A stretch of DNA of 64,000 nucleotides, taken from Nitrososphaeraceae archaeon (GTDB lineage Archaea > Thermoproteota > Nitrososphaeria > Nitrososphaerales > Nitrososphaeraceae). The notes under the pieces are model-generated. The model saw only the letters and a list, made by a program, of their open reading frames with translations. It made no database searches and was not told where the DNA came from. Each line of letters opens with the position of its first letter. Positions within the stretch are counted from its first letter, which is position 1. Made by a program: the position numbers and the translations under genes. Below are positions 35,645 through 38,588 of the stretch, one piece after another. The stretch lies in contig JADDOQ010000001.1 in assembly GCA_016782315.1 (NCBI GenBank), positions 12,737 to 76,736 of the forward strand, written 5' to 3'.

Positions 35645-35860
35645 TTAATGGATTTTATTCTCAACAATATTTAATTTTGATGAATCATAAAATGACGGAA
35701 AAATGGATTATTAATTATCATAAAACAAGTCTTATTACTTTGAATGTTATAGAAATGTGTCATGTTTGATCATGTTACTGATGCGTATAGCAATAGGGGA
35801 ATAAATGTAAAGAAAAGCCGAAGCCCCGTTATGGGTAATTCCCCTAAAAATGATTATTAG

Positions 35861-36564
35861 TTGGGTCATAATCACGAACTTGATGCTTTTCTATCAAATA
35901 ACGTAATTTTCGAAAACATTATCGATTATGATAATATAAAGAAAATTTTTCTTTTTGCGATAACGTCTAACTTACCTGTCCATATTTTACTTGTTGGTCC
36001 GCCTGGCTCTGCAAAAACTTTGTTTTTAATGGAATGTATGAAACTACCCCGCTCATATTTTACTCTAGGCAGCCATAGCACAAAGGCAGGCATGATAGAT
36101 TATCTATTAAAAACAGGCCCAGAAACCTGATTATTGATGAGATTGAGTACATGCCAATTAAGGACCAAGCTGTACTATTGAGTCTAATGGAATCTGGAAT
36201 ATTGAGTGAAACAAAGTTTGAAAAGATTCGGAAGTCTGCTATGAGGACCTGGGTTTTTGCATCATGCAATAACGAAAAAAAACTGTTGACACCTTTGTTG
36301 TCGAGATTTCTTGTCCTATATTTTAAAAAATATACTTATGCGGCCTTTTTAAAAATAACGGAGAACATTCTCCTGAAAGACTGCAACCTTGGGCCGAAAA
36401 TCTCAAATGAGATTGCTTATTTAGTATGGAATAAACTAAAATCTAGAGATGTAAGAGATTGCATAAAGATAGGTAGGCTTTCAAAAAGCATTGAGGATGT
36501 GAATTTAATTGTGAATGCTTTAAAACAAAACAAAAATAATAGTGGCGATTTGTCCGACAGTTGA
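35861..36564 (+). pseudogene. AAA+ ATPase (MCM/RuvB-like small family) split by a -1 frameshift in an A5 tract
   Basis: Walker A GPPGSAKT in 35861-36130. A6 instead of A5 at 36109-36113 gives LKNRPRNLIIDEIEYM (Walker B), continuing into 36151-36564 with LLSRF (arginine finger). Confidence 0.8.
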
Positions 36565-36583: not shown

Positions 36584-37771
36584 TTGAAAGTAAAAAAAAA
36601 TATAAAGACAAAATGTGTAGTAGAACCACACCCAAAATTGAGAATTTTTATCTGTGGCCCAACGCTCTATGAAAAGTGCCACATAGGCCATGCTCGAATC
36701 TTTATTTTCTTTAATCTTTTAATTAATTTCCATAGATTTGTTGGAGACTCACCTGTCGCTATATTACAGCTAACTGATATTGACCATAAAATCTATCAAA
36801 AGAGCAGCAGCAGCAGCAATCACAAAACAGAAAAAATTGCCAATCTTCCTGATAAATACTTAATTTATCTTTTTAGAGATTTAGAAAATTTGCAGGTAGA
36901 ACATAACTTTATTTACAGCCGTGTTTCTGACTTTTTATCTTTAATTAAAAATGATGTTGTGGATATCCTGAGAACAAAAAGGGGGTATTCTTATGCTGGG
37001 AATGTTTACTTGACAATTGAGGATCCGATCGTTGGCTCCCTTGGGCTAACATCAGATGAAATTGATGATATGCCAATTGATATCTCTAGTGGAAAAAAGA
37101 ACCAGAGGGATATACTGATATGGAACTCTGAAAATTTTTACCAAGAATATAAAAAAACTGATTGTAATGGCGAAAACAATGATACAATATTGACAACGGG
37201 CATTCCCGGATGGCATTTCCAGGATCATGAAATAATAAAAAATGTTTTTAGCACCAAATATGATATCCATGGTGGAGCTAGAGAACTGTTATATCCTCAT
37301 CATGAGTTCATTGATGAATTGTTTATCAAAAATAATCTAAATGATGGTTACTTGAACCAAAAAAACAATTGGGTTCATGTAGGGCTTGTAAATATTGATT
37401 CAGAAAAGATGTCTAATTCAAGCGGCAATACTGTTTCCATTTCAGATGTTTTAAAAAGATACAGTCCAAATGCGCTTAAAATCTTTTTTTTATCCAAAAA
37501 ATATAGAGATGACGTCGAGTTTTCCATTGAAGGTCTTGACAGGGCCGATATTATTGACAAAATTATTGCAGGTTTATTGTTAAAGAAAGAAAATAATCCA
37601 CAACAATACAATTATTTAGAAAAAGAATATTTAAAGCAGTTTCTAAAGTTTATGCGAGACGATTATGACACTGAGTCATCCATAAGCCTCATCTTAAGGA
37701 TAATTGATAAGTATCATAATCCGGTGTTGATTGAAAGTATGGTCGGTATTCTTGGTCTCAGATATTATTAA
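36584..37771 (+). CDS. Divergent cysteinyl-tRNA synthetase-like protein (degenerate Zn site, no anticodon-binding domain)
   Basis: CGPTLYEKCHIGH, TDIDHKI, PGWHFQD, HGGARELLYPHHEF, KMSNSSGN, and a DALR-like DDYDT; ends at 395 aa. Confidence 0.85.
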   Translation: MKVKKNIKTKCVVEPHPKLRIFICGPTLYEKCHIGHARIFIFFNLLINFHRFVGDSPVAILQLTDIDHKIYQKSSSSSNHKTEKIANLPDKYLIYLFRDLENLQVEHNFIYSRVSDFLSLIKNDVVDILRTKRGYSYAGNVYLTIEDPIVGSLGLTSDEIDDMPIDISSGKKNQRDILIWNSENFYQEYKKTDCNGENNDTILTTGIPGWHFQDHEIIKNVFSTKYDIHGGARELLYPHHEFIDELFIKNNLNDGYLNQKNNWVHVGLVNIDSEKMSNSSGNTVSISDVLKRYSPNALKIFFLSKKYRDDVEFSIEGLDRADIIDKIIAGLLLKKENNPQQYNYLEKEYLKQFLKFMRDDYDTESSISLILRIIDKYHNPVLIESMVGILGLRYY

Positions 37772-38588
37772 AGTTTTAAAAGAAAACGAATTTAGTTTCT
37801 GTAGTAGTTGGCATTCTGGAGTTTTAAATATCGATAACAAGTTCTTTACATTGGTTAACAAAGACTTGCATGATGATTATTTTATAAACAGAACAGTAAT
37901 CAATAAAAAACTTCATTTCAATCTAAATGACATAGGCCAAATCGAAAAGTTGATGCATCCTTTACTTCAACTTTCGAAAGAGGAAAAAATGACTTTTAAT
38001 TTGCATATAGGCTCAGATCAGTCTCTTTTGGAAGATTATTTAATATGCAAAAATTTTAACAAAATTGATGAAGTATTGGGTTTGCATTACCCTGATTACT
38101 CTGATATGACCGTTTCAAATGTACCTGACAGTGCATTAAAACAAAACGATCAATCTTTGAAGGTTTTGGTAGTTGATAATGCTGATTTGCTGAAAAAGTG
38201 GATAGAGGTCTACTGTTTATCCTTTGATATCGATAAAAACAAAGAAATGTTGATATATCGGTTATTGTTGAAAAAATTCAATATCTTTAAGTTTGTTTTT
38301 GCTGAAATAGATGCCGTAGGGGGAAAAAATAAACAAATTGTAGGCTGCAGCATCCTATACTTTCATAATGATTGCATTGCTTTGTATTGTTTAGGTACTC
38401 TGAAGGAATATAGGCACAAAAACATTGCAACAAATATTATTAATTTTTCTATTGAATATGGCAGAAGGAAAAGTTGCGGGGTATTTGGTCTTCAAACACT
38501 TAAAAGCGATAATTTATTGTCTTTCTATCAAAAAAAGGGGTTTGTAAAAAGTTATAATAATAAGATATACAGGATCTTTGACCGTTAA
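37731..38588 (+). CDS. GNAT family N-acetyltransferase (two-domain, 285 aa)
   Basis: C-terminal LGTLKEYRHKNIA acetyl-CoA motif A and FYQKKGF motif B; overlaps the upstream gene (TTG at 37731 or 37752). Confidence 0.85.
   Translation: MKVWSVFLVSDIIKVLKENEFSFCSSWHSGVLNIDNKFFTLVNKDLHDDYFINRTVINKKLHFNLNDIGQIEKLMHPLLQLSKEEKMTFNLHIGSDQSLLEDYLICKNFNKIDEVLGLHYPDYSDMTVSNVPDSALKQNDQSLKVLVVDNADLLKKWIEVYCLSFDIDKNKEMLIYRLLLKKFNIFKFVFAEIDAVGGKNKQIVGCSILYFHNDCIALYCLGTLKEYRHKNIATNIINFSIEYGRRKSCGVFGLQTLKSDNLLSFYQKKGFVKSYNNKIYRIFDR

Follow-up and report, generated by a model that had tools for sequence, protein, structure and literature searches.

Here, we describe a short paralogue of cysteinyl-tRNA synthetase (CysRS) from a soil ammonia-oxidising archaeon of the Nitrososphaeraceae that is tightly coupled genetically to an acyl-CoA-type tandem-GNAT acetyltransferase and to a small protein ending in tyrosine. 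Its gene lies in a stretch of 64,000 nucleotides, which is called the window in the following. The trio appears to be an undescribed, probably cysteine-ligating system. The reading that we favour, with moderate confidence, is that the short protein is an accessory cysteine-activating ligase, which goes back to a duplicated D-type CysRS that lost its anticodon domain and which would work in the manner of MshC/MshD with a candidate non-tRNA acceptor and a candidate N-acetylase.

The short CysRS paralogue and its descent

The features of the locus are collected in Table 1. The short ligase comprises a class I catalytic domain, a CP domain, a stem-contact fold and a shortened helical bundle. Its C-terminus (GLRYY before the stop codon) falls, in the alignment, where the helical bundle of CysRS ends, and the anticodon-binding domain of about 60 residues is missing. 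This is in agreement with the earlier note on this DNA, made from the sequence alone, which had described a 395-residue protein ending at this point; its list of motifs (HIGH, WHFQD, PHHEFIDE, KMSNS, no WxSPWG) was reproduced letter by letter and place by place. Most orthologues start at the position of an alternative TTG codon, 36638.

Table 1. Coordinates of the ligase locus, of the motifs within the ligase and of the two partner genes (window positions unless a contig is given).
Feature	Position	Strand	Remarks
AAA/MCM-like P-loop gene	35762..36564	+	upstream of ligase; in-frame stop near 35858, frameshift near 36106-36125
Short D-type CysRS paralogue (ORF)	36584..37771	+	395 aa from TTG 36584
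Cys24	36653..36655	+	corresponds to zinc ligand C28 of E. coli; no exchange in any of the CysRS groups compared
HIGH motif	36680..36691	+	intact
Lineage-specific replacement and insert NSENFYQEYKKTDCNGENNDTILTTGIPG	37124..37210	+	at the place of WxSPWG; end of CP domain, beside the acceptor-end pocket
WHFQD	37211..37225	+	W and H invariant; Asp214 at the E. coli C209 position
PHHEFIDE	37295..37318	+	H239 = H234 equivalent; FI insert, then E245 aligned with E238
KMSNS	37406..37420	+	for KMSKS
Tandem-GNAT acetyltransferase	37731..38588	+	285 aa; start TTG 37731 or 37752; overlaps the ligase stop codon by 20-41 nt
Small protein of ~100 aa, copy of this genome	G000:C252:17027-17335	-	outside the window, unlinked to the ligase

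With E. coli CysRS (PDB 1LI5/1U0B; TIGR00435) the short ligase shares the class I fold, HIGH and the equivalents of C28, H234, W205 and T68, and it differs in the exchange of C209 for Asp, in KMSNS for KMSKS and in the lack of both the WxSPWG segment and the anticodon domain. The pairwise match reaches 133 bits over residues 19-372. Pfam tRNA-synt_1e (PF01406) scores 173 bits for residues 18-321, and both NCBIfam models stay well below their cut-offs: cysS (TIGR00435) with 182 bits against 340 and MshC (TIGR03447) with 107 bits against an equivalog cut-off of 485. The nearest database proteins, with 91% identity, are labelled Candidatus Nitrosocosmicus, and an alignment of orthologues covering 34-91% identity retains 40 invariant columns. 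The AAA/MCM-like gene upstream adjoins the ligase only within Nitrosocosmicus and stands outside the conserved trio described below. Two Nitrosocosmicus relatives have it in unbroken form (267 aa); the disruption here stems either from decay into a pseudogene or from a fault of the assembly.

As the earlier note had supposed, a canonical cysS is present elsewhere in the genome. It is located on contig C168 (G000:C168), encodes 468 aa with HIGH, WGSPWG, GWHIEC, PHHENE, KMSKS and the anticodon domain, and this contig carries the only anticodon-domain match of the genome. The short form is thus not the only cysS here, nor is it the sole CysRS in any of the 61 genomes of the order. It is an accessory enzyme and not the housekeeping enzyme of the genome, and its role is probably non-canonical. 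One tRNA-Cys(GCA) gene was found in the genome, at G000:C272:9889-9984, and it bears an intron. ARAGORN reported only 20 tRNAs in this 96.5% complete genome, and many intron-bearing tRNAs were probably missed.

The short ligase is also a working gene, as follows from the purifying selection acting on it. Compared with its closest orthologue (L018, 92% amino acid identity) dN/dS is 0.22, and compared with the orthologue L007 (68% identity) it is 0.14; the neighbouring hemB yields 0.22 against L018, at 94% identity. The reading frame is unbroken in all loci examined except one, the locus L092 of genome G045, where the ligase was matched as two pieces and may carry a frameshift.

CysRS-family genes were collected from all 61 genomes of the order and fall into three kinds. 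C-type enzymes are of full length (approximately 440-560 aa, most of them 460-500) and carry WHIEC and PHHENEIA. Full-length D-type enzymes (465-472 aa) carry WHIED and PHHEAEIA. Short D-type enzymes, to which the window protein belongs, comprise 365-437 aa and show the pattern WH(I/M/L/F)(E/Q)D. Full-length D-types with an intact anticodon domain also occur in Bathyarchaeia and Korarchaeota. They (e.g., P0147, P0187, P0195) are the closest relatives of the short forms, with about 50% identity to typical ones and only about 25-30% to the window protein. GWHIED, PHHEAEIAQ, HIGH and KMSKS (KMAKS in some) are common to full-length D-types and typical short forms. The full-length enzymes keep the anticodon-binding domain, which the short forms do not, and neither a GNAT nor the small protein lies alongside them in the loci examined. 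We considered the full-length D-type as the sole route to Cys-tRNA. This holds only for G004 and G016, where it is the only full-length CysRS and where no SepRS was found; in family f12 it occurs alongside a bona fide SepRS, complete genes of which score 550-574 bits.

In a maximum-likelihood tree restricted to CysRS sequences, the short forms are monophyletic (SH-aLRT 100). Their clade is sister to the full-length D-types of Bathyarchaeia, Korarchaeota and some Nitrososphaerales, with a joint support of 100, and the branching inside it follows the genome families. A typical short form, L011, matches an archaeal CysRS structure with 348 bits and MshC with 191 bits. This score difference, together with the sister position to the D-types, indicates that the short family is an independent truncation of archaeal CysRS and not an orthologue of MshC. 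Genome G004 holds a full-length and a short D-type (the L033/L037 pair) and no C-type, which shows an origin of the short form by duplication of a D-type and not by displacement. The branch leading to Nitrosocosmicus is very long (1.59 substitutions per site). Considering that KMSKS reads KMSNS in this lineage and that its acceptor-side WxSPWG segment is remodelled, the Nitrosocosmicus enzyme may be unlike the other family members, with a drift in acceptor or rate.

Two partner genes inherited with the ligase

Most of the functional information is carried by two partner genes, which the functional picture of the earlier note had left out. The first encodes the tandem-GNAT acetyltransferase. 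It directly follows the short ligase in 27 of 30 short-form loci, and no GNAT was seen within 4 kb on either side of the full-length CysRS loci examined. Its AF2 model (pLDDT 87.8) shows two GNAT lobes. An acyl-CoA loop of the form R-x-x-G-x-G/A is located in the C-terminal lobe of eight out of ten aligned members, namely the eight from outside Nitrosocosmicus; the loop reads RHKNIA in the window protein and RHKNIA or RRKNVA within Nitrosocosmicus. An FY..GF motif is present in all aligned partners. According to Foldseek, its closest matches among PDB structures comprise VipF, WecD and a mycobacterial tandem GNAT, besides an unknown Staphylococcus protein and MshD (2C27, at rank 14), with FemX-type aminoacyl-tRNA transferases lower. 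The acetyl-CoA enzymes VipF, WecD, MshD and glucosamine N-acetyltransferase are among the best neighbours. Pfam and NCBIfam return generic GNAT matches only, apart from weak matches of TIGR03448 (MshD) in four of the ten members and none for the window protein; the GNAT is not an MshD equivalog. Further downstream, the neighbourhood is lineage-specific, with an HExxH protein in f10 (L024, L031, L042) and a radical SAM enzyme in f14 (L011, L014, L016, L095).

The second partner is the small protein, whose gene is divergently oriented upstream of the ligase in most loci. The family members comprise approximately 85-120 aa and share the motif L-D-x-D-(E/A)-G-I-R ... P-x-x-A-(W/Y)-x-Y, the last residues of which form the extreme C-terminus. 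A search among 1.84 billion representative proteins returned 172 members at E <= 0.001. Among the best 150 of these 172, the C-terminal Tyr is found in 143 representatives, and all 150 are stand-alone proteins of 50-149 aa without fusion to other domains. No Pfam or NCBIfam model matches the small protein. Its structure model has a pLDDT of 92, with no PDB fold neighbour better than E = 0.09.

Within the 61 genomes of the order, the short ligase occurs in 32, the small protein in 33 and the GNAT in 30, while 28 genomes contain none of the three. The three genes share their gains and losses, and co-loss occurred independently at least six times, once inside this genus (G015). In G051 (locus L009), which has the short ligase, the small protein occurs in two copies, and no GNAT was detected. 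On the level of the class, 123 of 401 genomes and 33 of 81 genera contain the small protein. Within this genus it is found in ten of 15 genomes, and the trio is absent from the other five and thus dispensable.

Likeness to MshC/MshD and other recruited synthetases

MshC and MshD are the cysteine:GlcN-Ins ligase and the mycothiol synthase of Actinobacteria (PDB 3C8Z, 8HFM, 1OZP, 2C27). Like MshC, the short ligase is derived from CysRS and has no anticodon domain, and it appears to keep a zinc-type cysteine pocket together with the contacts to the alpha-amino group (T46/T83/G44 equivalents). As in the MshC/MshD pair, the ligase is accompanied by a two-lobed GNAT, the C-terminal lobe of which bears the acyl-CoA loop. 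The differences are equally clear. In contrast to MshC, the short ligase is of independent origin, as sister to the archaeal D-type CysRS, and has Asp instead of Cys at the second zinc ligand position. In contrast to MshC/MshD, the ligase and GNAT genes are adjacent and overlapping, the scores lie far below both NCBIfam cut-offs, and an additional obligate partner of about 100 aa is present. There is also no co-varying LmbE-type deacetylase as in the mycothiol pathway: LmbE/PIG-L (PF02585) was found in 19 of the 61 genomes, independently of the trio. An amino-sugar route of the mycothiol or bacillithiol kind (MshB-type) thus finds no support. Judged by this comparison, the logic of the trio appears to parallel that of MshC/MshD, but the trio does not qualify as a member of that system by score, by descent or by pathway context.

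The reuse of a synthetase core together with GNAT-fold partners is also known from other aminoacyl-tRNA synthetase paralogues recruited to non-ribosomal ligation; the survey of these paralogues contains no archaeal CysRS-derived system (PMC2922099). A review of archaeal thiols from 2020 found no MshC homologues in archaea, which according to it lack genes of the mycothiol type (PMC7278568). The genes listed for ammonia oxidisers are those of ergothioneine only, with gshA in addition for the soil lineage Nitrososphaerales (PMC7554672). In our literature search, we found no paper that ties mycothiol or MshC to Thaumarchaeota or ammonia-oxidising archaea.

Proposed function and competing explanations

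In the mechanism that we propose, the ligase would form Cys-AMP in a site built from HIGH, KMS(K/N)S and the zinc-type pocket. The cysteinyl group would then be passed to an acceptor other than a tRNA selected by its anticodon. The translationally coupled tandem GNAT would acylate the product from acetyl-CoA, most simply at the alpha-amine of cysteine, and the small protein, encoded on contig C252 in this genome, would be the obligate partner that serves as acceptor, carrier or specificity subunit. For the formation of Cys-AMP, the independence from tRNA and the site of acetylation alike, we infer the step from the sequences and their comparison.

A tRNA-dependent enzyme in two pieces appears unlikely. 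In this reading, the short ligase would charge tRNA-Cys or another RNA, the small protein would bind the RNA in trans, and the Cys-tRNA would feed a dedicated pathway or be N-acylated by the GNAT. The catalytic core is unchanged, and the basic charge of stem-contact fold and helical bundle has been kept or raised: the net charge of the stem-contact fold is +4.8 in short forms versus +3.4/+2.3 in full-length enzymes, and that of the helical bundle is -1.6 versus -3.8/-4.3. Both are thus no more acidic than in full-length forms, which leaves room for a tRNA-dependent role. The model of the small protein bears a weak likeness to the PC4/Whirly single-strand nucleic-acid binders (probability 0.5-0.8), but with E >= 0.09 these fold matches lie below significance. 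As a detached anticodon domain of CysRS the small protein was rejected, since hhalign gives a probability of homology of 0.2%. In eight of the 123 genomes with the small protein no CysRS anticodon domain is seen, as a two-piece enzyme might allow, but the other 115 also have a CysRS of full length, and the surplus of genomes lacking it is small and does not reach significance (p = 0.08). Finally, Fem-type transferases, which unlike acyl-CoA GNATs use aminoacyl-tRNA as donor, are among the tandem-GNAT folds. However, the acyl-CoA loop in most lineages of the GNAT partner favours an acyl-CoA over an aminoacyl-tRNA donor.

A more specific version of the favoured reading assigns the role of acceptor or carrier to the small protein itself. 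The ligase would load cysteine onto it, with the C-terminal Tyr placed in the pocket for the tRNA 3'-end, and the GNAT would modify the cargo. We consider this version rather doubtful. If true, tRNA aminoacylation or scaffold-peptide biosynthesis would have a protein-based counterpart here, and such protein-acceptor chemistry would be widespread in ammonia-oxidising archaea and their relatives.

Adenylation of something other than cysteine in a retuned pocket is improbable. The earlier note had regarded the pocket for zinc and cysteine as lost or retuned, from the residues at positions 209 and 238 among others. When the enzymes are compared position by position, every C-type has Cys at position 209 and every D-type has Asp. 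Asp is also found in 14 of 14 sampled full-length TACK-type archaeal CysRSs that have kept the anticodon domain (L030, L032, L035-L037, L039 and L044; P0147, P0158, P0166, P0170, P0187, P0195 and P0231). D209 is ancestral and does not represent a loss of cysteine recognition. The equivalents of C28, G29, T31, both histidines of HIGH, T68, W205, H206, H234 and H235 are invariant in the D-types. The same positions are invariant in the C-types except for the last His of HIGH and single exceptions at the first His and at H206; this last His is replaced by Asn (HxGN) in the C-type CysRS of 16 of 31 genomes of the order. All positions in contact with cysteine and ATP are invariant except 209.

A retuned pocket would be in better agreement with the position of E238, which reads H, V or L in other genera of the Nitrososphaeraceae and R/K in one Nitrosocosmicus subclade, with the two-residue insert after PHHE and with the long Nitrosocosmicus branch. 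The Glu is nevertheless retained in 23 of 29 short forms. Its loss from the window protein, as claimed before, is not robust, since HMMER and MAFFT both place the FI insert after PHHE and align E245 with E238. The residues at C28, C209, H234, E238, W205 and T68 are accordingly C, D, H, E (after the two-residue insert), W and T. In MshC, zinc is held by only three protein ligands plus the thiol of the substrate (PMC9736012). Given this requirement, the invariant residues and the ancestral D209, the pocket of the short ligase still looks like a cysteine pocket. The earlier note is borne out in part, in that the gene is probably neofunctionalised, has accessory status and lacks the anticodon domain; retuning of the pocket is not evident, nor is the gene in decay.

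A catalytically inactive or regulatory remnant, e.g., a sensor for cysteine or zinc or a scaffold for the GNAT, is very improbable. One might think of it in view of the dispensable trio and of KMSNS, in which the second Lys of KMSKS (K269) is replaced by Asn. This exchange is found in two of 29 short D-types, both from Nitrosocosmicus (the window protein and L007), with KMSKS in the other 27; in an alignment of closer relatives (A1) KMSNS occurs in further Nitrososphaeraceae too. But activity is known from class I synthetases that carry KMSSS or KMSAS, and HIGH and all residues in contact with the substrates are invariant across a deep phylogeny. The decaying copy that the earlier note had offered as its other option, redundant to the canonical cysS and lost repeatedly as a paralogue, is refuted by dN/dS values in the range of hemB, by the frame being intact in all loci examined but one (the possible break in G045) and by a monophyletic, class-wide conserved clade that is co-inherited with two partner genes.

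For the annotation of CysRS genes, it has to be considered that Asp is a normal zinc-site residue across a whole clade of archaeal enzymes, which bears on any assignment made from motifs. In soil and in the sea, ammonia-oxidising archaea belong to the most abundant microbes, and little is known about their thiol and redox chemistry. The existence of a class-wide trio built from the CysRS of these archaea themselves suggests a cysteine-containing product or a protein modification that has so far gone unrecognised. If the reading as an accessory cysteine ligase is true, it would be the second, independent case of a CysRS that was turned into a non-translational ligase.
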